Positions 2,192 through 24,335 are shown, counted from the stretch's first letter. The stretch: DNA of 24,335 nt from Candidatus Eiseniibacteriota bacterium (GCA_034440375.1 JAWXBZ010000194.1:1-24335); one strand, 5' to 3'. Notes: a model not told the origin generated them from the sequence alone. Numbers and translations are program-made.

Positions 2192-4150
2192 ATGGTTCAC
2201 CTTTCGATCCGCCTCTTTCGATGTCGTCAGTTCCAGACCGCTCTGCTGCTGGTTGGCGGCATCCTGCTTTCACCACTCGCCCCAACCGCCCGCGCCCAGG
2301 ATTTCCGCGTCCTGGAGGACACGACGACCGTGGTGCCAGACGCCAATATCGTCCTTGGCGCCACGCCGCCGCAACTCCTGGTGCCGCGCGTCCTCCTGGC
2401 CGGCGACAGCTGGGCCCAGTACATGTGGGATGACGGGTCGCACAATGACAATTTCGACCGCTTCGGCTTCGAGGATCGGCGGGCGGTAAGCCTGTCGCTT
2501 GGCAGCGATCCGGGGCCGGGGCACGTTGGCCCGGAGTACTCGGTGTCAGGCAGTGAGGCCCGGCAGTGGGCCGATACGGTCAATTATCCCTGGATCGCGA
2601 ACATGGTGGCGGCACTCCAGGCCAACCCGACGATCGAGCTCGTCGTCCTCTCCATCGGCGGCAACGACGTCCTGGCCGGAAAGCCGGGAGGCGGCTGGTA
2701 CAAGCAGATGGACCTGGACGTCCCGGGGTCGGAAGCGGCCTTCTTCGACCGGTTGGAAGATGACACCTTCGCCGTCATCAATGCGGCACTGGCTGTCCGA
2801 CCATCGATTCGAGTGCTGATCTCCAGCTATGAATACCCGAACTTCAATGTCGGATTCTGGTGCTTCCTCTACGCCTGCCCAAAGCGCCGCGATCTCTCCC
2901 GCGATCCGAACAGCGCGCTGATCAGCGACATCGAACTCAACGACATGATGAAGCGGACCGAAGAGCGCCGGATTGGCTGGGTGTCGTCAAACCCGCGGCT
3001 GCTGTTCGACCACAGCATCGGGCTGATGCACTGGTACCACGGCGATGGGCAGACGGGGCCGCGCCTGCTTCCCTATCCAGGACAGACACCTCCGAATTTT
3101 GCCCCCTTTCCGGGAGGCAACCCGCTGCGGCCCACCCTGCGCGCTGATTTCCGGAGGCCGAATGGTGTCGATGCCGATCCGATTCATCTCAACGTCGCCG
3201 GTTACCAGGACAAGATCGCCAACCAGGCGACGAGCCTGTTCGTGCCCTGGTTTCGAGGCGGGATACTGGAAACAGTGGTGGCCACCGGCGGTAACCTGGA
3301 TGGTTGGACCGATGGGGTAACCCTGGGAACGAGCGGCATCCGCGCCGGGGACACCGGCACGCTCCCTCTCTGCGGAATTCTATCGTTCGACACCAGCGTC
3401 ATCCCCGACGGGGCCAGCGTCACCGGTGCCTCGCTCTACCTGACCAGGGATTCGTTGACCGGCACCAATCCGTTCACGTCCGGAACCCTCGGAATGCCGA
3501 CGATCGATGTCCGTCGGGGTACCTTCGGCGCGTCGGTAGTCGAGATTGGTGATGCCAGCGCTTCCGCGGATGCGGCCAATGCCGGGGTGGCGATCGGCTC
3601 GGTGAAGGGAAATGGCTATGCCCTGCGAATCGACATGGATGTCAGCGGATTGGCGGCGATCAATGATGTCGGCCTGACCCAGTTTCGCCTCTCCTTTCCG
3701 ACGGTCTCGAGCGGCACGGCGGCGGATTACATCACGTTTCGCGATGGCGAATCGCCGCCACCTCCCGCCACGGAACCCTCCACGCTGGCCGAGTTCATGG
3801 GGACATCGGCACCGTTCCTCGACCTCTCCTATCTCGTGCCGTCCGGCGTCGAGGATCCGGAGATGGCCCCGCCGATCGTCCTGCGCGGCGCCTCTCCCAA
3901 CCCGTTCAGGGCCGCCACCACGATCCGATTTCGCCTGGGCTTTGCCGGTCCGGCCCGGCTCGACGTCTTCGACGTGACCGGCCGCCGGGTCGTCACGTTG
4001 CTCGAGCAGGTCTTGCCGGCCGGTGAGCAGGGCGTGACCTGGGACGGGAGAAATGGAAGGGGAGAAGCCATCGGCGCCGGGCTGTACTGGGTGCGATTGA
4101 CTTCGGGAGGCGTTACGCGCGGGCTTCGAGTGGCGCGAACGAGTCGCTAG
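2192..4150 (+). CDS. Secreted SGNH/GDSL-family hydrolase with central beta-sandwich and C-terminal FlgD-Ig-like (T9SS-CTD-like) domain
   Basis: GGAGGA at 2179-2184 lies 7 nt before the ATG, and the signal peptide ends ...ARA-Q. SGNH blocks are GDSW, SGSEA, GGND and DPIH. The tail is SPNPFRAATTIRF...LDVFDVTGRRVVTL...VTWDGRNGRG...GLYWVRL. Confidence 0.85.
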   Translation: MVHLSIRLFRCRQFQTALLLVGGILLSPLAPTARAQDFRVLEDTTTVVPDANIVLGATPPQLLVPRVLLAGDSWAQYMWDDGSHNDNFDRFGFEDRRAVSLSLGSDPGPGHVGPEYSVSGSEARQWADTVNYPWIANMVAALQANPTIELVVLSIGGNDVLAGKPGGGWYKQMDLDVPGSEAAFFDRLEDDTFAVINAALAVRPSIRVLISSYEYPNFNVGFWCFLYACPKRRDLSRDPNSALISDIELNDMMKRTEERRIGWVSSNPRLLFDHSIGLMHWYHGDGQTGPRLLPYPGQTPPNFAPFPGGNPLRPTLRADFRRPNGVDADPIHLNVAGYQDKIANQATSLFVPWFRGGILETVVATGGNLDGWTDGVTLGTSGIRAGDTGTLPLCGILSFDTSVIPDGASVTGASLYLTRDSLTGTNPFTSGTLGMPTIDVRRGTFGASVVEIGDASASADAANAGVAIGSVKGNGYALRIDMDVSGLAAINDVGLTQFRLSFPTVSSGTAADYITFRDGESPPPPATEPSTLAEFMGTSAPFLDLSYLVPSGVEDPEMAPPIVLRGASPNPFRAATTIRFRLGFAGPARLDVFDVTGRRVVTLLEQVLPAGEQGVTWDGRNGRGEAIGAGLYWVRLTSGGVTRGLRVARTSR

Positions 4151-15663: not shown

Positions 15664-16647
15664 CTACTTGCGCCCCTTCCGCAACGCCCCCTCCAGCGCA
15701 TCAGCCACATTCTGCGGCGTCAGCCCGGCCATGATCAGCAGGTCTTCCGGCGGGCCGCTTTCGAGGTAGCGGTCGTTGATGGCCACGATTTTCATCGGGA
15801 CGCGGTGGTCGCTTTCGATCAGGACTTCGGCCACGGCGGAGCCGAGGCCGCCGTAGCGGCTGTGTTCCTCGGCGGTGACGATGGCGCCGGTGTCGCGGGC
15901 GGCGGCCAGGACCGCTTCGTGGTCCAGCGGTTTGATCGTGTGCATGTTGAGGACACGGGGACGGATGCCGCGGCCCCGGAGGATCTCGGCGGCTTCGAGC
16001 GCCTGGGCCACCATGAGGCCGCACGCGATGATCGTGCCGTCGGGGCCGTCTTCCATGAGGATGGCCTTGCCGGGTTCGAACGGCGTGTCCTTCGTGGTGA
16101 TCACCGGTACCTTTTCGCGGCCCATGCGGAAGAAGACGGGCCCCTCGTGTCGGGCCGACCACTTGGTCGTCTTGTAGGTCTCGTGATAATCGCAGGGGAC
16201 GATGACCGTGAAGTTGACGATCGGGCGGATGACGCCGACGTCTTCCATTGACTGGTGCGTCGGGCCGTCCTTTCCCACCGAGATGCCGCCGTGGGCCGCG
16301 CCGATCTTGACGTTGGCCGCGGAGTAGGCGACACCGTTCCGCACCTGGTCCCAGGCACGGCCGGAGAGAAAGATCGAGTAGCTCGACAGGAAGGGGATGA
16401 AACCCATGTGCGAGAGGCCGACCGCCGTGCCGACCATGTCCTGCTCGGAGATCCCCATCTCGAAAAATCGGTGGGGATACTTCTCGCCGAAGAATCGTGT
16501 CAACGTCGACTGCGCGAGGTCCGCATCGAGTACGACAACCCGCGGGTCCTCCTCACCCAGCTCGACCAGCGCATCGGCGTAGGCCTGGCGGGTCAGCTGC
16601 AGCTCCCACTTCTTCCCCATCACCTTCGTCGCGTCAACGACGCCCAT
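15664..16647 (-). CDS. Transketolase, C-terminal (pyrimidine-binding + C-terminal) subunit
   Basis: Motifs VVLDADLAQST, FEMGISEQDM, GKDGPTHQ, TIKPLD and TAEEHS.YGGLG. Confidence 0.93.
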   Translation of the reverse strand: MGVVDATKVMGKKWELQLTRQAYADALVELGEEDPRVVVLDADLAQSTLTRFFGEKYPHRFFEMGISEQDMVGTAVGLSHMGFIPFLSSYSIFLSGRAWDQVRNGVAYSAANVKIGAAHGGISVGKDGPTHQSMEDVGVIRPIVNFTVIVPCDYHETYKTTKWSARHEGPVFFRMGREKVPVITTKDTPFEPGKAILMEDGPDGTIIACGLMVAQALEAAEILRGRGIRPRVLNMHTIKPLDHEAVLAAARDTGAIVTAEEHSRYGGLGSAVAEVLIESDHRVPMKIVAINDRYLESGPPEDLLIMAGLTPQNVADALEGALRKGRK

Positions 16648-16671
16648 GTCTGCTCCCGGACCGGATGGTTG

Positions 16672-17598
16672 TCAATGATGTGCACCTGCGCCGGCCCAGA
16701 TCGGGCCTGGCTTGGGGGGCTGAGTCGGCCAGTCCTCGTAAGTGGCCACCAGTTCGTCCTTCGTGCCGGAAAAACCGAGGGCCTTCATGGCGATCGCGAG
16801 CTCGTCATCGTTGAGGGGCTTGCCGTGCCACTTGAAATTGTCCTCGTACGGCGGCACGCCCTTCATCATCAGCGTGCGGAAGAGAATCACTGTCGGTTTT
16901 CCCCGGGTGGCTCTCGCCTCATCATAGGCCGCGGCGATCTTTCCGTAGTCGTGGCCATCCGTTTCGATGACATGGAAATTGAAGGCGCGAAACTTGTCGC
17001 CAAGCGGTTCGATCCCCATCACGTCCTCCACCCGGCCGTCGATCTGGGCATTGTTGAAATCGACCAGGAGGCAGAGATTATCGAGCTTGTAGTGGGCTGC
17101 GGTCATGACCGCCTCCCAGATGTTCCCTTCCTGTAACTCGCCATCGCCGCAATTGCAGTAGATGCGGACATCGTGCTGACCCTTGAGCCGCGCCCCGAGC
17201 GCCATGCCGTTGGCCTGCGAGAGCCCCTGACCGAGACTGCCGGTGGAGGCCTCGAGGCCGGGCACGTAGATCATGTTGGGATGCCCCTGGAGCGGCGACC
17301 CCGACATGCGAAACCGAAGCAGCCACTTCGGCGGAAAGTAGCCGCGCCGGCAGAGGACCGCGTAGTTGTAGGCGGAGCAGTGGCCGTTCGACAGGACAAA
17401 ACGATCGCGTGGTTCCCTGCGCGCTGCTTTTGGATCGATGTCCATGACGTTGGCGAAGAGCCAGGTGGCATAGTCGGCCATCCCCAGTGGTCCCCCGGGG
17501 TGTCCGGAATTGGTCAGGTTCGTCATAAGGCATACATCAAGTCGGATCTGTTGCGCCATGCGGAAGACGGCGTCGGGCGCGAGATTGAGCGTTGGCAT
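16672..17598 (-). CDS. Transketolase, N-terminal (ThDP-binding) subunit
   Basis: Motifs SGHPGG, DRFVLSNGH, LQGHP, TGSLGQG, GDGELQEG...NN and WHGK. Confidence 0.93.
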   Translation of the reverse strand: MPTLNLAPDAVFRMAQQIRLDVCLMTNLTNSGHPGGPLGMADYATWLFANVMDIDPKAARREPRDRFVLSNGHCSAYNYAVLCRRGYFPPKWLLRFRMSGSPLQGHPNMIYVPGLEASTGSLGQGLSQANGMALGARLKGQHDVRIYCNCGDGELQEGNIWEAVMTAAHYKLDNLCLLVDFNNAQIDGRVEDVMGIEPLGDKFRAFNFHVIETDGHDYGKIAAAYDEARATRGKPTVILFRTLMMKGVPPYEDNFKWHGKPLNDDELAIAMKALGFSGTKDELVATYEDWPTQPPKPGPIWAGAGAHH

Positions 17599-17607
17599 AG
17601 GCAGTGA

Positions 17608-17636
17608 AACCTATCATCCCGATGCCGGTGCGTCAA
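17608..17636 (-). promoter_or_regulatory. sigma70 promoter of the transketolase genes
   Basis: TTGACG (17636-17631), 17 bp, TGa-TAGGTT (17613-17608). The -10 ends 9 nt before the ATG and there is no SD. Confidence 0.7.
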
Positions 17637-17730
17637 TCCATCCATTCGTAGAACGATGGCTGCAATGTGTTGCCATGCAACATCTTGCGGTTAGCGCTTC
17701 AAGTGCTGTCGCGCCCGCTTCGATGGCGGG

Positions 17731-19566
17731 TCACCAGTCCGAACCGCCAGCGGCCAGTCGAAGCGCCACGCCCGCGCTCCGCTCCACCGCCGCGAGCACG
17801 GAAACCTCCTCGGACACGAAGAGCGCCGCTTCGATCCGCCCCCGGGCGATGCCGGCGGCCAGGTGCCAGCGTCGTCCGCGCCCATGGACCGTGACCGAGC
17901 CGTTCTGTCCCGCCGCCCGCTCCTCGAACACCAGTGCCGACCCGGATGGTGGCATGTCGAATCGCGCGATTCCGCCTCCCGCCCAGGTGCCGGCCGGACC
18001 GCGCCAACGGCCGCGAATCACCAGGAGATCGCGGGCGCTCCGAATTCGATGGTCGTCGCCGGCCGCACCGCGTTCCAGGTCGAGCCGACCGCTCCAGTCG
18101 AATCGCAGGCGCGTCCGTTTCCCCTCCCAGGCTGCCTTGAGTCGGCCGGTGTATCGCCGCTCCGGTGGATCGGCCAGCGGGGATGGCCCGGGCGCGCCGC
18201 GCGTCTCCAGTCCGACATCGAAGGCCATGGCCAGCCCTGGTGTCCGCGTTACTTCGATCCCCAGTTCCGCCGCGCCGATCGGCCGGTCCCACGCCCGCCG
18301 GCTCGCCGCCGGATCGAGCCGGCCGGTCAATCGCCCGAGCGCGGCCGTGTGGCGCGTGAGCCGTGCGCGCAGCGAGAGGCTCGTCACCTCACGATTCTCA
18401 TTTCGGCCGGTTGACAGCAGCGCCGCCGAAACGGGATCACGCTCACTGTCGAATCCAAGCGGCGCCACGAAGCTGCGGTGGCCGCCCACATGACGAAACT
18501 CGGCACGGAGTCGCCGACCGTCGCGAACATCCAGGGTCAGCGCCCGGCGAATGGCGCCATCGGCATCGCGGGCCAGTTCGAGGCGGGCGACGCCCGCACC
18601 AAAGGGCGCCGAGAGATGAAGCGACGACCAGGGTCGCTGCTGCCAGATGGCGACCTGCACAGCGACGCCGACCGCCGAGTCACCACGGGCACCCACGCGG
18701 AACCTGGCCCAGTGCCAATGCGGTGGCGGAAGTATCGAATCACCGAGTGATGCTGCGGCCAGCGCCGCCCGGTACTTAAACGTACCGATCGTGAGGCGTC
18801 CGCCCAGATCGACCACCGCACCCCGAAGGAATCGGCTCCCCGGTGTCGGGGCGGTCCGCTCGAGATCGTCCGGTTTCCCGATGGTCCAGGGAGAGTTGGT
18901 CGGATGTCGCCCGATAGGCGGCTCCCCTGAAAAGGAACCGCGCAGGCCGAGTAGTAGCCCTAATCCCTCGAGGGGAGCCATGTCGCCGACGTGAATCGCC
19001 AGGCCAGGTCGAGGTCGAATTCTCAGGCTCATCGACGGCTCGACCTGTGGCTGGAGGCCGTTGGACATGGTCCGGCGTACCCGCCCCGCGGCGGCCACCC
19101 AGCCCGATCGCAGGAGGAGAGTGGCATCATCCCGGATGCGTGTCGGCGTCTTCGTCCGTGCCAGTGAGGCCCGCACCTCGTTGCCGGCGGCCGCGGCGCC
19201 CAGGAACAACCAGGGGCGCACGGCAAGCAATCGGCCCGCCGGAAGATCGGACTCGGCCGACGCCAGTTCGGACCAGGCGCGGATCGGTCCATGCGTCGCC
19301 CGAAATTGAACAAGGCCCTGGGCCAGGTCGGCGGTCATCCCCGGGATGGTCATTAGTTCGTCGAGCGTAGTGCGATTGATGTTGATCGGTTCCACGAGCG
19401 CCGCGTCCATTGCCATGCCGGACTCCGCCTCATCGATGGCGCCTGCCGGGGATGCGGATATCGCCTCGATGATGAGAAGTGAGAATGCGGCGAGTGGCAG
19501 AATCATCCTCGTGGTGCGGACGGCCCGTGGAACCCGATGGTTCCGGCCGCGACTGTCACGAATCAT
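17731..19566 (-). CDS. ComEA-type helix-hairpin-helix domain protein fused to a predicted outer-membrane beta-barrel
   Basis: Start at ATG 19566 (overlaps the upstream stop) or 19506; the ORF-track start at 20037 lies inside the upstream gene. Signal peptide, then HhH (PININRTTLDELMTIPGMTADLAQGLVQFRATHGPI), then ~500 aa of amphipathic beta-strands including VGDMAPLEGLGLLL and FLRGA. Confidence 0.75.
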   Translation of the reverse strand: MIRDSRGRNHRVPRAVRTTRMILPLAAFSLLIIEAISASPAGAIDEAESGMAMDAALVEPININRTTLDELMTIPGMTADLAQGLVQFRATHGPIRAWSELASAESDLPAGRLLAVRPWLFLGAAAAGNEVRASLARTKTPTRIRDDATLLLRSGWVAAAGRVRRTMSNGLQPQVEPSMSLRIRPRPGLAIHVGDMAPLEGLGLLLGLRGSFSGEPPIGRHPTNSPWTIGKPDDLERTAPTPGSRFLRGAVVDLGGRLTIGTFKYRAALAAASLGDSILPPPHWHWARFRVGARGDSAVGVAVQVAIWQQRPWSSLHLSAPFGAGVARLELARDADGAIRRALTLDVRDGRRLRAEFRHVGGHRSFVAPLGFDSERDPVSAALLSTGRNENREVTSLSLRARLTRHTAALGRLTGRLDPAASRRAWDRPIGAAELGIEVTRTPGLAMAFDVGLETRGAPGPSPLADPPERRYTGRLKAAWEGKRTRLRFDWSGRLDLERGAAGDDHRIRSARDLLVIRGRWRGPAGTWAGGGIARFDMPPSGSALVFEERAAGQNGSVTVHGRGRRWHLAAGIARGRIEAALFVSEEVSVLAAVERSAGVALRLAAGGSDW

Positions 19567-20476
19567 GGTCGACCGCCGGGCGTCGTCCCATACCCTTGCC
19601 GGTCGTGATGCCGATCGCCGTCCACGAGCCGAGGCGCGGATGCGTACGACGACCGATGTCCAGACGGATCGGACCGGTGCCGGCCGAGAGACCCACGCCG
19701 ATCTGCCCATCGGCCGGCCGGAATCCGCCCCGGACAGCGAACTGCCGCGTGATGGCCCACTCAAGCCCAGCCTGGTGCCGCCAGCTCTGTCCGGGCGCCC
19801 CCGCATCGAGGGCCAGGGCGAGTCGCCACCCCCGCGGCAGGTCGAGGGCCGCGCCAAGCTCAACGCGATCCGGGGCCAAACCGGCCAGCCCACCGCCACG
19901 GGCCAGCCATCGGGCCGCCAGCGCCAGGGAGGGGCCGACGCGCCCGCCGATCGCGATACCGAGGATCCAGCCGGAGGAACCGGTGGCGTCCGCTCTGCTT
20001 TCGGCATCCGACGTCTGATCGCCGGCACGCCAGCCACCGGCTCCCAGCGTCAACCCCCATCCCCAGCGGGAGCCGCCCCGGGCCGGGCGCGTGACATCGA
20101 GCTGAAATTCATTCTCGTGATAACCGGCCAGGCCGCGATCGGACAGGCGGGCGGCGAGCCGCAAGTTCCCCTTGCCGAACCAGGCCGCCGCGCCGGGCGA
20201 TTTCAATTCCGGAATGGACTCCACCCGGGAGATCACAGCCGTGCCCCCGAACCCGGTCGGCCCGCCCACGACGCACGAGCCGTCCACCGGCAGGCGTCCG
20301 TCATCGGACCAGGCCGGCTGTGGCCCTCCCAGGCCAAGGGCCAGGGGATCCGCGGCCGGGGCTTCCATCGCCGAACGCGCGGCGGGCGGCATGCTCATGC
20401 CGATCAACAACATCACGCCGCACCATGAAGCCGGGAGCGATATCGACGATCGGGTTGCCTGGAACCGCCCACTCAC
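19556..20476 (-). CDS. Predicted outer-membrane beta-barrel, PorV/PorQ-like
   Basis: Signal peptide; ALGLGG near the mature N-terminus, PEL and G..GYHE motifs; C-terminal AGLEW...AVRGG...LDIG...HPRLG pattern. GTGA overlap with the upstream stop. Confidence 0.6.
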   Translation of the reverse strand: MSGRFQATRSSISLPASWCGVMLLIGMSMPPAARSAMEAPAADPLALGLGGPQPAWSDDGRLPVDGSCVVGGPTGFGGTAVISRVESIPELKSPGAAAWFGKGNLRLAARLSDRGLAGYHENEFQLDVTRPARGGSRWGWGLTLGAGGWRAGDQTSDAESRADATGSSGWILGIAIGGRVGPSLALAARWLARGGGLAGLAPDRVELGAALDLPRGWRLALALDAGAPGQSWRHQAGLEWAITRQFAVRGGFRPADGQIGVGLSAGTGPIRLDIGRRTHPRLGSWTAIGITTGKGMGRRPAVDHDS

Positions 20477-21327
20477 CGCACACCACCCATCACGACCGGG
20501 CGCCGCCAGCGCCTCGGTGTCACTTCGTCATCAAAACGCCCTTCGAGCAGCACAACATAAAGCCCCGGCGGGCACCGACGACCCGCATCGTCGGCGCCAT
20601 CCCAGACAACCCGTCCCACCGTGGACGCCTCGTCCAATGGCCGGAGGAGCCGCACCGACCGGCCATCGAGATCGAATATCTCCAGAGTCAGGAGTGCCGG
20701 ACGATCAAGATGCCAGGAGATGCGAGCGCCGCTCGAACCAGGCACGATCGGTCCGATGGGTACGATCAACTCACCCTTGTCGATTTCCTCCGGCCGGGGC
20801 GAAAGGGAGTTTCGACCCAGCGGCGTGGCGCCGAGCGGGTCATCGCACGGGGACCAGTTGGCGGCCAGCAGGCTTCCGCCCACCGGATCAATGCGCTCGA
20901 GGGAACGCCCCGCCCCGCCGAGCCAACGCGCCTGATAAATCAGGGAATCCAGCACCGTGCCATTGGCGGATCGCAGGACGACGGCGTCCGCCCATCCGGC
21001 CTCGCCATCGGCATCGTTCAAGGTTGGCCAGGTGCCAATCGGCTTTACGACACGCGAGGAATCGAGTCCGGCAAAGGCGGAATGAACGCGCTCGACGTTG
21101 GATGCGAAGACGAGAAATTCGCCCGGGGCGAGATCGTCGATCGTGTCGGGAATTTGAGCCGGGCGTCGCCGCGCATCCTCGATCGACAGGCCGGCCACGG
21201 GTGCCGACGCATCCCCCGCATTCTGAATCTCGATCCATTCAGATCCGCCGGTCAGGGGTTTGACGAACAGTTCGCTGATGACGAGTCGCGCGATGAGGAA
21301 GACGAGCAGGGTCGCGATCTGGAGCAT
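20473..21327 (-). CDS. Lamin tail domain + C-terminal FlgD-Ig-like domain protein
   Basis: SD-like GGGAGAAGGA; LTD motifs LVISEL, EWIEIQN, LAPGEFLV, WPTLND, GRSLERID and GATP.GRNS; tail LEIFDLDGRSVRLL...WDGADDAGRRCPPGLYVV. Confidence 0.85.
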   Translation of the reverse strand: MLQIATLLVFLIARLVISELFVKPLTGGSEWIEIQNAGDASAPVAGLSIEDARRRPAQIPDTIDDLAPGEFLVFASNVERVHSAFAGLDSSRVVKPIGTWPTLNDADGEAGWADAVVLRSANGTVLDSLIYQARWLGGAGRSLERIDPVGGSLLAANWSPCDDPLGATPLGRNSLSPRPEEIDKGELIVPIGPIVPGSSGARISWHLDRPALLTLEIFDLDGRSVRLLRPLDEASTVGRVVWDGADDAGRRCPPGLYVVLLEGRFDDEVTPRRWRRPVVMGGVR

Positions 21328-21466
21328 GTCCTTCTCCCTGGCAGGCCGGATGGTTGACCCGGCTGCCGAACGGACGGGACCGTTTCGGGAACGTAGGACG
21401 ATGATTGCGCGGGACGGGAATCAGGATGGAGCGCCACGCACAGGGGGCGCCCCGGAGACGTTCTTG

Positions 21467-23761
21467 CTAGACCATTCCGCGACGACGTCGGAGAAACCAT
21501 TCGGACGAGAGCAGGCCCACGAAGGCGACGAAAAACCAGGGGCTGTCCCAGATGTCGAGGGTCACCACTTCCTTATTGGCGCTGCCGGCGATCTGCAATT
21601 CATCGGGGAGGCGTTTGGCTTCGGCCGGTCGGTAGAACCGACCACCCGATTCAGCAGACAGTCGTGCCAGGAAGGCCGGATCGGCCGCCGGGCGGCGGAA
21701 CTCAACGCCCATCGATTCAACGGCGAAACTGCCGCTCGCCTCGCCAAGCGACGTCCCTTCCCGTCGGGCCAGGGCGCGGTAGCGATAGCGACCGGGCGGA
21801 AGGCTCGGCGACTCCGCTGCATAAAAGCCGCCACCGCTGCCGGCCAGGGCCACCGTGCGCGGCAGGCCGGCTTCCGGTGACATCGGGCTGTTCTCCACGC
21901 TCGGGGCGGGTGCCGCCAACGAGTCGTCCCGCGTGATCGTTACGCTGATCTCCGCGCCGTCCAGCGGCTGGTACTCACCATCCGACAGGCGGGCCGTGAA
22001 GTCCACCGACGCGCCTCGCTCGAACACGGCGCGGCCGGGCTCGACCGACAATCGACTGGCCAGGTCGGGCGATGTCAGCCAGCGCGCCGCACCAATCCAG
22101 AGGCGCTCGTGAAAATCACGACGTTCCTCCGCGCCGGGTGGGCGAAAGGCCCAGCGCCAGAAGCCGTGGGCCGACACCACCAGCACCTTGCCGGCACCGG
22201 AACGACCGACCACCAACACGGGATAATCGCCGGGGCCCGACACCAGCACCTCGGCACTCCCTTTCAGCGCTGGTTCGCTCCCGGCTGAAGCCAGTGGCGG
22301 CAGGTCGGACCAGAGTGCCGCGTTGTCAGTTTCACCTTCAACCACCTGCGTTGCCGGATGACGACGCCCGGCATTGGTTAGCAGGACCTGAATCGCCGAA
22401 CTGCCGTTGACCTGCGGGGACGCCGGATCGACCGGCAGAATTCCGGCAAGCGGTGTACCTGCCAACCGCTTGATTCCGGTTCCGCCGGCGCCACCGAAAA
22501 CGAGAAGACCCCCGCCCCGACGGGTCCAGTTTGCCAGAGCCTCCCAGCTCGCCACCGGCAGATCGCGGGCGTCGAGCCCGCTCAATACGACCAGCACATA
22601 GGGTCCGAGTTCAGCGGCGCCCGGCGAAAACGATGTCGGCTGGCTGGGGCGTCCCAGCGATCGCCAGCCGGTGCCAAGCCGCACCATCGTCCGGACCGAC
22701 AGGCTCGAGTCGGCAGCCAGGGACCGATTCAGAAAGGCCAGATCCCAATCGGCGGTCCCGGCGATGACGAGGACCTTGTTCTTCTCCTCTCGCACATCGA
22801 GGGCGAACATGCGGCGGTTATTGATCCCGGTGAACTCATCCGGACGCGGGGTAACGCGGACCTCGTAGAAGTGCTGTCCCACGCTGGCCGGACGAAACTT
22901 GAGCCGCACCTGCTGTTCGGCACCGTCGGCCGCCCAGACGATCGACTGCTTCGTCACCATGTCCTCACGGCCTGGACGTGTCACGTCCACGACTTCGAGG
23001 TCGACCCCGCCGCCCGCGAGTCCCTGGTTGTGCACCGTCACCGCCAGCGGCACATCATCGCCCAGGAACGCGGTTCGGTTGACCTGAATGCGCGCCACCG
23101 ACGCGTCCAGGCGGATCGAATCGCTGCCGACACCAATGGTGTAAACCGGCAGCGCCAGCCGGCGGGCCACGGCCACGGGATCGATCCCCTGGTTAGCCAC
23201 GCCGTCCGAGACAATGACCACCGCACCGGCCCGGGCCCGGCCGATCTCGGCCACGGCCGATTCCATGGCCGAGCCGATGGCGGTAGCATCACCGGCCGGC
23301 GTCAGCGCGGGAGGGGGCGGATTCAGCTTGAGGCCATCGGGCAACGGACGCGCCACGCGATCGAATCCCCAGGCTCGAACGCCGTGTCGGTCGGCAAGTG
23401 CCGGAAGAATATCGGCGAGGGCCGTGCGGGCCTGCTCGGCGCGCGTCGGCCCCGCGTGGTCGGCACCGGCCGGGAGGGTCTGGCTTTCGGAGGTGTCGAA
23501 GAGGACCGCCACGAGGCGTCGCCCCTTGTCGGCGGCTCCCAGGGTAATGACGGGGCGGCAGATCAGAACCAGGAGGATGATAAAGGCTGCGGCCCGGATC
23601 ACCTGCAGCAGGGCGCGCATGGGGCCGGACATCGGCGCGGGGTTCTTGCGGTAGACCCAGATGGAGAGGGCGACCAGGAGCATTCCGACAAGTAGCCAGG
23701 GCCACAGGTGTCCGCCCGGCGGTTGAAACGAAAATCCCCTGAAATCGCTGATGGCCGGCAC
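21467..23761 (-). CDS. Membrane-anchored vWA + Ig-like + glutamine-amidotransferase-like domain protein
   Basis: Two N-terminal TM helices; MIDAS-like FDTSES, TAIG and VSDG; GATase-like section (GGGLLVFGG); WRW motif; C-terminal TM followed by EWFLRRRRGM. Confidence 0.82.
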   Translation of the reverse strand: MPAISDFRGFSFQPPGGHLWPWLLVGMLLVALSIWVYRKNPAPMSGPMRALLQVIRAAAFIILLVLICRPVITLGAADKGRRLVAVLFDTSESQTLPAGADHAGPTRAEQARTALADILPALADRHGVRAWGFDRVARPLPDGLKLNPPPPALTPAGDATAIGSAMESAVAEIGRARAGAVVIVSDGVANQGIDPVAVARRLALPVYTIGVGSDSIRLDASVARIQVNRTAFLGDDVPLAVTVHNQGLAGGGVDLEVVDVTRPGREDMVTKQSIVWAADGAEQQVRLKFRPASVGQHFYEVRVTPRPDEFTGINNRRMFALDVREEKNKVLVIAGTADWDLAFLNRSLAADSSLSVRTMVRLGTGWRSLGRPSQPTSFSPGAAELGPYVLVVLSGLDARDLPVASWEALANWTRRGGGLLVFGGAGGTGIKRLAGTPLAGILPVDPASPQVNGSSAIQVLLTNAGRRHPATQVVEGETDNAALWSDLPPLASAGSEPALKGSAEVLVSGPGDYPVLVVGRSGAGKVLVVSAHGFWRWAFRPPGAEERRDFHERLWIGAARWLTSPDLASRLSVEPGRAVFERGASVDFTARLSDGEYQPLDGAEISVTITRDDSLAAPAPSVENSPMSPEAGLPRTVALAGSGGGFYAAESPSLPPGRYRYRALARREGTSLGEASGSFAVESMGVEFRRPAADPAFLARLSAESGGRFYRPAEAKRLPDELQIAGSANKEVVTLDIWDSPWFFVAFVGLLSSEWFLRRRRGMV

Positions 23762-23859
23762 TCCCTACAAAGTTCGAGCCGGCCCTTCCGGTTCCCGGAA
23801 AGATCGGCGTCGAATCAAGGCTGTCGTACGGAAAGGATTCGAGGTTGGCGGGTTCGAAA

Positions 23860-23888
23860 AAGCTAGCATGCACCCGGGGGGGTGTCAA
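23860..23888 (-). promoter_or_regulatory. sigma70 promoter upstream of the vWA gene
   Basis: Perfect TTGACA (23888-23883), 17 bp, TGc-TAGCTT (23865-23860). Confidence 0.75.
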
Positions 23889-23924
23889 CGAATGGGTGTT
23901 GGTATCAGGGACCTGGTATTGGTC

Positions 23925-24335
23925 TCAAGGCCCTGTTGATGCGGACCGTCGAAAGTTGTACCAGCCGATCAACAACACCTGCGGAATCGTGATCGCCTCC
24001 ACGAACCCGATGGCCGTCACGAGCAATCCCTCGATTCGAACGAAGACGACCGCGGGAAGGGCGACGCGCCCGCCAACCAGCGCGGCCACCAGCAGTGTCA
24101 TCACAACACCGGTCGTCTTGCCAAGCACGGTCGGTCGTATCTGGACCGGACCACGAAAGAGATAGAGGAACGTCGCCCCACCGAATAGCAGTCCGTATCG
24201 GGTCATGATCAGGACCAGGACCCAGGCCGGAATGAGTTTTACTGCGAAGAGTGCAATGAACAGCGCCGCATTGAACAGAACATCGACGACCGGATCAAAG
24301 ATGCGACCGAAGTCGGTGGCGTCGCCGCGGCGACG
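23925..24335 (-). CDS. CDP-alcohol phosphatidyltransferase family protein (partial, 5' end beyond window)
   Basis: Frame is open to the right edge and reads RRRGDATDFGRIFDPVVD, the second half of the DGxxAR...GxxxDxxxD motif. It is followed by TM helices and LGKTT. Confidence 0.88.
   Translation of the reverse strand, partial: RRRGDATDFGRIFDPVVDVLFNAALFIALFAVKLIPAWVLVLIMTRYGLLFGGATFLYLFRGPVQIRPTVLGKTTGVVMTLLVAALVGGRVALPAVVFVRIEGLLVTAIGFVEAITIPQVLLIGWYNFRRSASTGP

Follow-up and report, generated by a model that had tools for sequence, protein, structure and literature searches.

In the secretion system of type IX (T9SS), the gene of a cargo protein whose C-terminal domain (CTD) is of type B is directly followed by that of a cognate PorP/SprF-like barrel, which has been proposed to act as its anchor or router (available parts of PMC9143113 and PMC12618676). 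In Riemerella anatipestifer, a pilus-independent form of transformation requires a surface protein (RS04920, with a DUF5689 domain), a barrel carrying CarboxypepD_reg (RS04915) and a separate, predicted periplasmic protein with a helix-hairpin-helix (HhH) domain (RS02645) (available part of PMC8459023). The locus analysed here consists of three genes, designated p1, p2 and p3 in transcription order, on the minus strand of a contig (C194; JAWXBZ010000194.1:1-24335) of the Candidatus Eiseniibacteriota bacterium assembly GCA_034440375.1. The whole 24,335-base contig, with a G+C content of approximately 65%, is referred to as the window; the genome (3.96 Mb in 264 contigs, 93.7% complete) is designated G000 and a sister genome G001, while L-numbers denote loci and f-numbers families. 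The genes are predicted to encode a small protein with a lamin tail domain (LTD) and an immunoglobulin (Ig)-like tail (p1), a barrel of the PorV/FadL type (p2) and a large barrel preceded by an HhH domain (p3). It was found that these three kinds of protein, namely an LTD protein with a tail, a PorV/PorQ-type barrel private to it and a large barrel that often bears an HhH domain, form a recurrent module. With a probability of roughly 0.45, this module may consist of a surface receptor of the T9SS type, provided with an anchor barrel of its own, beside an HhH-bearing channel that handles extracellular nucleic acid.

PorV and PorQ are shuttle and anchor barrels of the T9SS, PorQ being paired with PorZ. 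The p2 protein resembles them in its predicted fold, a 14-strand FadL-type barrel with an N-terminal hatch; in addition, the Ig-like C-terminal domain of a secreted protein (p1) is predicted to sit on its loop face, and G000 encodes SprA together with approximately 100 CTD proteins. It differs from them in falling below the PorV, PorQ and PorP models by sequence, in its mature length (approximately 270 residues compared to approximately 350-390) and in that its gene comes immediately after that of one small cargo, to which it is a private partner and whose tail gives no match to the type A CTD model.

The locus is similar to the pairs of type B cargo and PorP/SprF-like barrel in that p1 directly precedes its own barrel gene, and in that long-form orthologues of p1 (two LTDs and the tail, 560-630 amino acids) give weak matches (18-25.9 bits, cut-off 27) to CHU_C (PF13585), the type B CTD model. 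However, p1 of the window has no CHU_C match at E <= 1, each PorP/SprF model is touched by one of 48 p2 relatives (TIGR03519 at 1.5e-4, PF11751 at 0.052), and the known pairs, as described in the available parts of the two papers, have no third, HhH-barrel gene. The likeness to the Riemerella genes, for which no homology was found, is one of logic, in that a protein at the surface, a barrel in the outer membrane and a protein with an HhH domain are combined in a bacterium of the Fibrobacteres-Chlorobi-Bacteroidetes (FCB) group. The HhH protein is there separate from the barrel, and the genes are not placed beside T9SS barrels in the available part of that study (PMC8459023). DUF5689 (PF18942) had no match in G000, although a gene beside the paralogous (type-2) module of G001, described below, combines an LTD with a weak match to this domain of RS04920.

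ComEA, the periplasmic DNA receptor of transformation, shares with p3 the HHH_3 signature with its hN.A...L..hP cap and the expected periplasmic location; in p3, however, the domain is fused to a large barrel and its GhG hairpins are degenerate, and a normal ComEA is encoded elsewhere in G000. ExeM-type extracellular nucleases are composed of an LTD, an oligonucleotide/oligosaccharide-binding (OB) fold and an endonuclease/exonuclease/phosphatase nuclease, the LTD and OB fold making up the front half (available part of PMC6085458). As far as that description goes, the feature in common is that a secreted protein, attached to the envelope and meeting DNA, begins with an LTD, to which the type-2 cargo adds a weak OB-fold match; unlike in ExeM, neither p1 nor the type-2 cargo gave a match to a nuclease domain. 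The principle of cargo-barrel pairing is already known. No description of a module of LTD protein, PorV-like barrel and HhH barrel was found in the literature searched, and as far as could be found there is no earlier account of the HhH-barrel family, of its link to an LTD cargo and a PorQ-like barrel private to that cargo, or of the type-2 locus with its five genes.

Gene order and recurrence of the module

A previous reading of the window, made from the sequence only, had described three co-oriented genes with overlapping stop and start codons and hydrophobic leaders, and these features were all found (Table 1). A hydrophobic segment stands at the start of each protein, that of p1 being only approximately 14 residues long and, in the alignment, running directly into the LTD. 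The overlap of p2 with p3 depends on use of the upstream ATG of p3 at 19566; the database version of p3 (P0001, 591 amino acids) begins 60 nucleotides further in, at ATG 19506, which leaves a gap of 49 nucleotides instead. Both junctions of the trio in G001 are overlaps of 4 nucleotides. A Shine-Dalgarno-like run, GGGAGAAGG, precedes the ATG of p1, and when positions 17300-24335 were scanned for promoters and terminators, nothing resembling a promoter was seen and none of the gene boundaries had a terminator. The minus-strand row in the window runs from a gene for a 764-amino-acid membrane protein through p1, p2 and p3 to a split transketolase, which also lies directly downstream of p3 in G001; p1, p2 and p3 are taken to form one operon-like module, probably together with the upstream membrane protein.

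Table 1. Positions of the features discussed, in the window unless a contig or locus is named
Feature	Position	Strand	Description
p1	20473-21327	-	ORF (open reading frame), 284 aa (amino acids); short hydrophobic leader, one LTD, linker, tail resembling the FlgD-type Ig fold
LTD of p1	20935-21291	-	residues 13-131; PF00932, E 2e-10, 41.4 bits (cut-off 34.3)
C-terminal Ig-like domain of p1	20476-20754	-	residues ~192-284; predicted docking surface for p2
p1/p2 junction	20473-20476	-	GTGA; TGA stop of p1 overlapping GTG start of p2
p2	19556-20476	-	306 aa, starting at GTG 20476; signal peptide and N-terminal hatch segment in front of a predicted 14-strand FadL/PorV-type outer-membrane barrel
p2/p3 junction	19556-19566	-	11-nt overlap of p2 stop with upstream ATG of p3
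p3	17731-19566	-	611 aa from ATG 19566; signal peptide, ComEA-like (HhH)2, predicted large barrel
HhH domain of p3	19261-19389	-	residues 60-102 of the 611-aa form
Barrel of p3	17755-19179	-	~24-26 predicted strands
764-aa membrane protein	21467-23761	-	two N-terminal transmembrane segments, regions like von Willebrand factor A (VWA) and GATase1, C-terminal transmembrane segment
Split transketolase	15664-17598	-	N and C subunits as separate genes
GDSL-lipase-like protein	2192-4150	+	652 aa; type A tail, TIGR04183 at 3893-4117, FlgD_ig 1.6e-5
Type-2 module in G000	C188:342-5175 (L125) and C180:9000-16238 (L148)		HhH barrel split over two contigs
G001 type-2 neighbour	L145:1226-3250	-	LTD, CBM_56, type A tail, weak DUF5689 (22.4 bits, cut-off 28.6)
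G002 type-2 neighbour	L142:338-2713	+	792 aa; weak CarboxypepD_reg match

Recurrence of the type of module seen in the window (type 1) was assessed in 61 loci with a near-full p1, comprising the window, 20 loci from named metagenome-assembled genomes (MAGs) and 40 fetched regions (L052, in which p1 is not full, was dropped). A p2-like gene, recognised with an iterated p2 profile, starts between -81 and +98 nucleotides from the end of p1 in 51 of these loci, which include Fibrobacterota- and Gemmatimonadota-labelled ones, and 29 of the 51 junctions are 4-nucleotide overlaps. A leader-bearing third gene follows p2 in most loci. No p2-like gene was found after p1 in the other 10, namely L114-115, four loci from Rhodothermales, Ignavibacteria and Latescibacterota with an LTD-FlgD homologue (L039, L041, L042 and L045), and four loci of the sister family f2 (L082-84 and L086), where ORFs of similar size follow p1 and are too divergent to call. 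At E <= 1e-10, the p1 profile had matches in 201 of the 206 phylum genomes, many of them in the tail only, and it also matched 46 loci in named MAGs; the 206-genome tallies include one genome flagged as unpublished (G078), on which no claim rests. Orthologues of p1 with a length of approximately 285 amino acids numbered 24, with identities of 51-86%. The recurrence of the trio, which the sequence-only reading had put forward, was thus confirmed by a second copy in G000, by further copies across the phylum and by Gemmatimonadota-, Eisenbacteria- and Bacteroidota-labelled MAGs. The search of one Ignavibacteria MAG yielded no p2-like gene and no HhH-barrel gene.

When 33 third genes were scanned for HHH_3, 11 had a match at E <= 2e-6, 2 had weak matches only and 20 had none. 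Comparison of the p3 family with the HhH-bearing third genes of other families using hhalign gave a probability of 98.85% (E 4e-17) over 504 columns, by which the latter are homologous to p3 over their whole length.

The 764-amino-acid protein, which had not been considered in the sequence-only reading, has a linkage to p1 no looser than that of p2, a homologue being located directly upstream of p1 in 45 of the 61 loci, often a few bases away. It gave weak Pfam and NCBIfam matches only (NF047508, BatA, 20 bits compared to a cut-off of 380), and 'BatA-like' is used as a loose label for its VWA part. The order BatA-like gene, p1, p2, p3 with coupled junctions recurs in G001, where identity to G000 is 82% for the transketolase N subunit, 59% for the 764-amino-acid protein, 56% for p1, 32% for p3 (29% in the alignment) and 29% for p2. 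This linkage would suit a unit centred on the BatA-like inner-membrane protein, an envelope-spanning complex such as an envelope tether or stress-response system, in which p1 would be a periplasmic partner, p2 and p3 would be the outer-membrane parts, and T9SS display would play no role. The gene is also kept in the loci of family f2, just 1 of 5 of which yielded a p2-like gene; between G000 and G001, conservation is much stronger for p1 than for p2 and p3; and p1 has a short leader and a tail that is not a canonical type A CTD. Such a unit is nevertheless improbable: type-2 trios had no BatA-like neighbour in any of 10 loci, p1, p2 and a third gene occur in f16 loci in the absence of a BatA-like gene, and the complex model described below puts the p1 tail on the long-loop, presumed extracellular, face of p2.

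It is very improbable that the genes are neighbours solely through conserved gene order in a narrow lineage, with no joint function. Synteny does reach housekeeping genes, with the transketolase following p3 in both G000 and G001 and an aminotransferase-like N-terminus recurring downstream of the third gene in many loci, but the stop/start overlaps are kept across deep divergence, the same three-part architecture is found in a paralogous locus and in other phyla, and the complex prediction passes its controls.

Variations in the surroundings of p1 were also observed. In four f9 loci (L092, L096, L097 and L117) the p2-like sequence is the N-terminus of an open frame of 1,814-1,884 amino acids directly after p1, which could be either a real fusion of the barrel to a giant protein or read-through of a high-GC frame. 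In many phylum genomes, small proteins of approximately 210 amino acids with a leader and an LTD-type start (..LLNE..ADP) recur a few genes beyond the module, approximately 2.4-3.8 kb downstream of p1 in L083, L084, L107, L108, L112 and others. In two Latescibacterota-labelled MAGs, FtsK follows the LTD-FlgD homologue, directly in L042 and past a non-barrel membrane protein in L045, and neither of these two loci has a p2-like or p3-like gene.

Predicted structures and docking of p1 on p2

The p2 protein of the window gave no Pfam family (OMP_b-brl only, E 0.02) and no NCBIfam match at E <= 1, including to the PorV/PorQ models NF033709, NF033710 and NF033711; the PorV model finds six other PorV-like loci in G000 and not this one. 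When folded with 48 relatives, p2 was predicted to form 14 strands after an N-terminal segment (mean predicted local distance difference test score (pLDDT) 82.7, predicted TM score 0.79). In an exhaustive structural comparison, PorV (6h3i_F) ranked first (Z 23.1, root-mean-square deviation (rmsd) 2.8 over 249 residues aligned within model residues 35-295) and was tied with FadL homologues (Z 21-23) and FadL-like subunits of Bacteroidota β-barrel assembly machinery complexes (Z 20-21), while other 14-strand barrels began at Z 16.5; the same barrel class was returned by Foldseek. Within the p2 family, 5 of 48 members match NF033709 (best E 6e-17) and two match PorQ. Judged by its predicted fold and by transitive sequence links p2 is PorV/PorQ-like, in line with the earlier description of it as a PorV-like barrel, and it is not a member by curated thresholds. 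It is presumed to be a dedicated anchor or shuttle for p1.

The curated score of PF00932 was reached by p1. The match of its residues 199-259 to FlgD_ig (PF13860; E 2.3e-5, 24.7 bits) is a near miss of the cut-off of 27, as is that in the six-frame search (26.7 bits), and the name 'FlgD-type Ig fold' denotes a sequence resemblance only; the LTD and FlgD_ig calls for p1 and the HHH_3 call for p3 made previously hold in the Pfam scan with this qualification. In NCBIfam, the tail faintly matches the C-terminal ends of FlgD, PorU and PorZ. It is not among the 104 matches to TIGR04183 (T9SS type A CTD) in G000 at E <= 0.001 and is regarded as a divergent tail because the type A model does not find it. 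The p1 protein is presumed to be a surface-displayed cargo or receptor.

A complex of mature p2 and p1, each with its own alignment, was predicted in three runs and with 3 controls, using a pass mark (a score no lower than 0.32 that also exceeds each control by 0.20 or more) which is reached by 58 of 80 solved complexes and by 2 of 110 mismatched pairs. The ipSAE scores for p1-p2 were 0.80, 0.71 and 0.78 (median 0.78) compared to 0.00 for the best control, with a partner pLDDT of at least 77 and a contact agreement between runs of at least 83%. On the p1 side the interface is confined to residues 192-282, i.e. the Ig-like tail, while p2 contributes residues 37-40 at its mature N-terminus together with every other loop (85-91, 114-121, 149-167, 199-202, 226-233, 255-258 and 279-282). 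In the model, the loop face of p2 contacted by p1 carries the longer loops and is presumed to be extracellular. The contact between the p1 tail and its own PorV-like barrel, which had been suggested from the sequence, is therefore also what the modelling predicts. As regards the T9SS context, the 104 TIGR04183 tails of G000 lie mostly in the same places as its 114 FlgD_ig matches, SprA is present, and at three of the six other PorV-like loci (contigs C196, C241 and C150) a tail-bearing gene is, by coordinates, just upstream of the barrel gene.

The HHH_3 match of p3 (E 7.1e-7, 29.7 bits) exceeds the cut-off of 27, while the ComEA models TIGR01259 and TIGR00426 were not reached (21.5 bits vs 152.35 and 17.6 vs 53.1, respectively). 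The model of p3, made with 13 sequences (pLDDT 71.4), consists of a signal helix, HhH helices at 48-99 and 26 DSSP strands at 110-584 that form a closed outer-membrane β-barrel. FimD and PapC are 24-strand chaperone-usher pores and MtrB has 26 strands, and these three were the best structural partners of p3: FimD (Z 13.7) and PapC (Z 13.1) with 354-359 residues at rmsd ~5, and MtrB (Z 13.4) with 385 residues aligned, rmsd being ~5-6 across the large-pore matches. The predicted p3 barrel is like them in size and shape (Z 13-14, 355-385 residues aligned) and unlike them in having no sequence relation to them and no usher or Mtr partners, and a match at the level of fold is uninformative as to cargo. 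Only generic outer-membrane barrels were returned by Foldseek (probability 1.0, TM 0.2-0.4). Model and fold matches agree with the earlier description of a large β-barrel behind an HhH domain, and p3 is, on the model, a wide outer-membrane barrel of no specific family.

Both ends of outer-membrane barrels lie in the periplasm, and approximately ten residues join the HhH domain of p3 to strand 1. By this standard topology the domain should be located at the periplasmic mouth or in the lumen of the barrel and not at the cell surface. Its hairpins read PGMTADLA and DLPAGRL, compared to PGVGPKLA and KGVGPSLL in the ComEA of G000 itself and LPITPAIA and PGVTPELL in type-2 barrels; p3 does not have the two GhG hairpins and flanking basic residues of the ComEA type, and as the hairpins are degenerate, the DNA binding previously attributed to the domain cannot be assumed. 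A motif that is nearly invariant in the p3 family, GD-AP-EGLGLL(-G) (residues ~174-190 of the 591-amino-acid form), sits in a low-confidence loop just after strand 5. Its aligned counterpart in other families of type-1 barrels is GD....FGQGLL, a similar G.Y..AFGQGLVM is seen in type-2 barrels, and the loop could be a plug or a functional site.

A direct sequence search with p3 found only 8 proteins in a set of 5.8 billion, and a search of 1.84 billion representatives gave 19,347 matches, of which, among the 150 listed, approximately 9 cover the barrel and the others the HhH domain only. Full-length matches of the p3 profile over the 206 phylum genomes were confined to G000 and G001, and iterated hidden Markov models built from the p3 barrel recruited no other third genes. 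The wider p3 family was reached only through synteny and profile-profile comparison.

A paralogous module with a 5'-nucleotidase gene

Besides p3, the HHH_3 search of G000 returned a ComEA-like gene of the ordinary kind (contig C96, 65.6 bits) and a match on contig C188, the latter belonging to a second, paralogous module (type 2). On C188 lie, head to tail, the genes of a cargo protein with two LTDs, two PKD domains and a C-terminal Ig-like tail, of a PorQ-like barrel (317 amino acids, starting 3 nucleotides past the cargo stop) and of an HhH barrel, which runs off the contig and continues on C180, followed there by a FadL-like barrel and a 5'-nucleotidase. The full-length form of the type-2 barrel has approximately 880 amino acids and three HhH repeats. 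By hhalign, type-2 barrels share homology with the type-1 HhH barrels of other families (probability 99.5%, E 1.1e-22, 546 columns), while only the HhH domain aligned when they were compared to the p3 family.

Using a query from genome G130, the type-2 barrel was found in 17 of the 206 phylum genomes: 2 of 2 in f1 (which includes G000), 7 of 8 in f2, 2 of 3 in f18, 5 of 89 in f10 and 1 of 15 in f16. It was also found in an Eisenbacteria-labelled MAG (39% identity), in a Gemmatimonadota-labelled MAG (37%) and in 7 of 20 relatives of a Bacteroidota-labelled MAG, and was not found at E <= 1e-6 in one Ignavibacteria, one Bacteroidota and one Fibrobacterota MAG. The order tail-bearing cargo, p2-like barrel, HhH barrel was seen in all 9 fetched type-2 loci, and in 6 of 7 loci from relatives of the Bacteroidota-labelled MAG the type-2 barrel has a p2-like gene in front of it, the seventh having no upstream flank. 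Downstream of the HhH barrel, a FadL-like barrel is encoded in 10 of 10 loci, in L134 and in 7 of 7 loci of these relatives. A 5'-nucleotidase (Metallophos and 5_nucleotid_C) follows in 7 of 11 type-2 loci; in the remaining 4, two have none in a flank of 1.4 kb and two have a flank of less than 0.7 kb. An LTD is present in the type-2 cargo of 6 of 9 loci, and the cargo of 2 of the 9 gives a weak match to an OB fold (tRNA_anti-codon, below cut-off); Big_5 is the main family in three f10 cargo proteins, in which no LTD was found, and is present in three other cargo proteins.

Single proteins next to type-2 modules had further domains, in G001 (L145) an LTD-bearing protein with a weak DUF5689 match and in G002 (L142) one with a weak CarboxypepD_reg match (Table 1), DUF5689 and CarboxypepD_reg being domains of the Riemerella proteins RS04920 and RS04915, respectively. 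Look-alikes in the atlas, which are leads only, are HhH proteins of 680-917 amino acids in Cloacimonadota, WOR-3, Fidelibacterota and Bacteroidota.

The paralogous module bears on a somewhat unlikely alternative, that of a T9SS surface-anchoring module with no nucleic-acid role, in which p1 would be an adhesin or matrix-binding LTD protein on a private PorQ-like barrel. The p3 protein would then be a structural outer-membrane partner, like additional members of the PorU-V-Q-Z or PorP-PorE-PG1035 assemblies, with its HhH domain serving as a plug or in contacts between proteins. The pairing of p1 with p2 and the T9SS surroundings are consistent with this, as are the degenerate hairpins of an HhH domain that is dispensable in most lineages; moreover, known cargo-barrel pairs anchor adhesins (PMC9143113; PMC12618676), and the role of the LTD is unsettled even in ExeM (PMC6085458), in each case according to the available parts of these papers. 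It is less consistent with the combination of LTD, HhH barrel and PorQ-like barrel in two paralogous modules, and with the link of the type-2 module to a 5'-nucleotidase and to cargo with weak OB-fold matches.

A candidate route for extracellular nucleic acid

For the preferred reading, that of a surface receptor beside an HhH-bearing channel, we infer T9SS surface display, docking of p1 on p2 (as seen in the model), a periplasmic HhH domain and a nucleic-acid ligand. According to this, p1 would be exported and displayed on the cell surface, with its Ig-like tail not cleaved and sitting on the extracellular face of the private p2 barrel, in a manner resembling that of T9SS cargo tails on PorV, PorQ or PorP/SprF proteins. 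The p3 protein would be a wide barrel of approximately 24-26 strands with the (HhH)2 at its periplasmic mouth, and the LTD protein would bind extracellular nucleic acid at the surface and pass it, whole or in pieces, through or along p3. The nucleic-acid role is suggested by the LTD, the OB fold, the HhH domain and the 5'-nucleotidase, which point to extracellular nucleic acid or nucleotides; it is rated overall at a little under one half, and within it scavenging is more likely than transformation. The capture or uptake of DNA that the sequence-only reading had proposed for the trio is still tentative, with new support from the 5'-nucleotidase and OB-fold cargo of the paralogous module, while the pilus-independent character of the route found no such support, since G000 has ComEA, a secretin and ComEC and so does not depend on a route of that kind.

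A number of observations weigh against this reading. With regard to p1, export is not certain because the leader is only approximately 14 residues long, the tail scores under the FlgD_ig cut-off and has no TIGR04183 match at E <= 1, and CHU_C matches are weak, below cut-off and limited to the long-form orthologues. As a solved PorV-CTD complex (8gl6) is among the Foldseek matches of p2, the docking score may reflect likeness and not binding. The confidence of the p3 model, as given above, is middling, the hairpins of p3 and of type-2 barrels lack the second GhG glycine and the usual lysines, the HhH domain is missing from most of the type-1 third genes scanned, and third genes of f9 and f10, which have no HhH domain, gave no significant hhalign match to the p3 family or to the HhH barrels of other families. 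The trio of the window has transketolase and amino-acid genes as its neighbours and no nuclease, nucleotidase or competence gene adjoining it, and a phmmer search with the FadL-like and 5'-nucleotidase proteins of G000 found neither beside any type-1 locus (one weak match, 4.5e-6, in L105). Finally, the canonical ComEA, secretin and ComEC of G000 would be available for transformation in the ordinary way.

A more far-reaching version is unlikely. In it, the HhH barrel would be an import channel for DNA or oligonucleotides that operates without a type IV pilus or secretin: a T9SS-displayed LTD (or LTD and OB-fold) receptor on the PorQ-like barrel would hand nucleic acid to the 24-26-strand pore, and the fused periplasmic (HhH)n would act as a built-in ComEA-style ratchet. 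The FadL-like channel and 5'-nucleotidase of type 2 would complete a 'nucleic-acid utilisation locus' that is widespread in the FCB superphylum.

For the uptake of DNA or nucleotides across the outer membrane in the FCB group, the Riemerella screen provides a genetic lead (available part of PMC8459023). The conserved gene set described here ties the cargo-anchor logic of the T9SS to a new class of large barrel fused to a ComEA-like domain and, in the paralogue, to a 5'-nucleotidase. If the preferred reading is true, it would represent a new outer-membrane route for extracellular nucleic acid and would be relevant, in soils and sediments, to the cycling of phosphorus, the DNA of biofilms and the transfer of genes; should the idea of DNA handling fail, the p1-p2 pairs would still widen the 'private shuttle barrel' principle of the T9SS beyond Bacteroidota and PorP/SprF. 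The presence of the type-2 module in relatives of the Bacteroidota-labelled MAG may open a tractable organism.

Elsewhere in the window, on the plus strand, a GDSL-lipase-like protein carries a type A tail (Table 1) and is an ordinary T9SS cargo.

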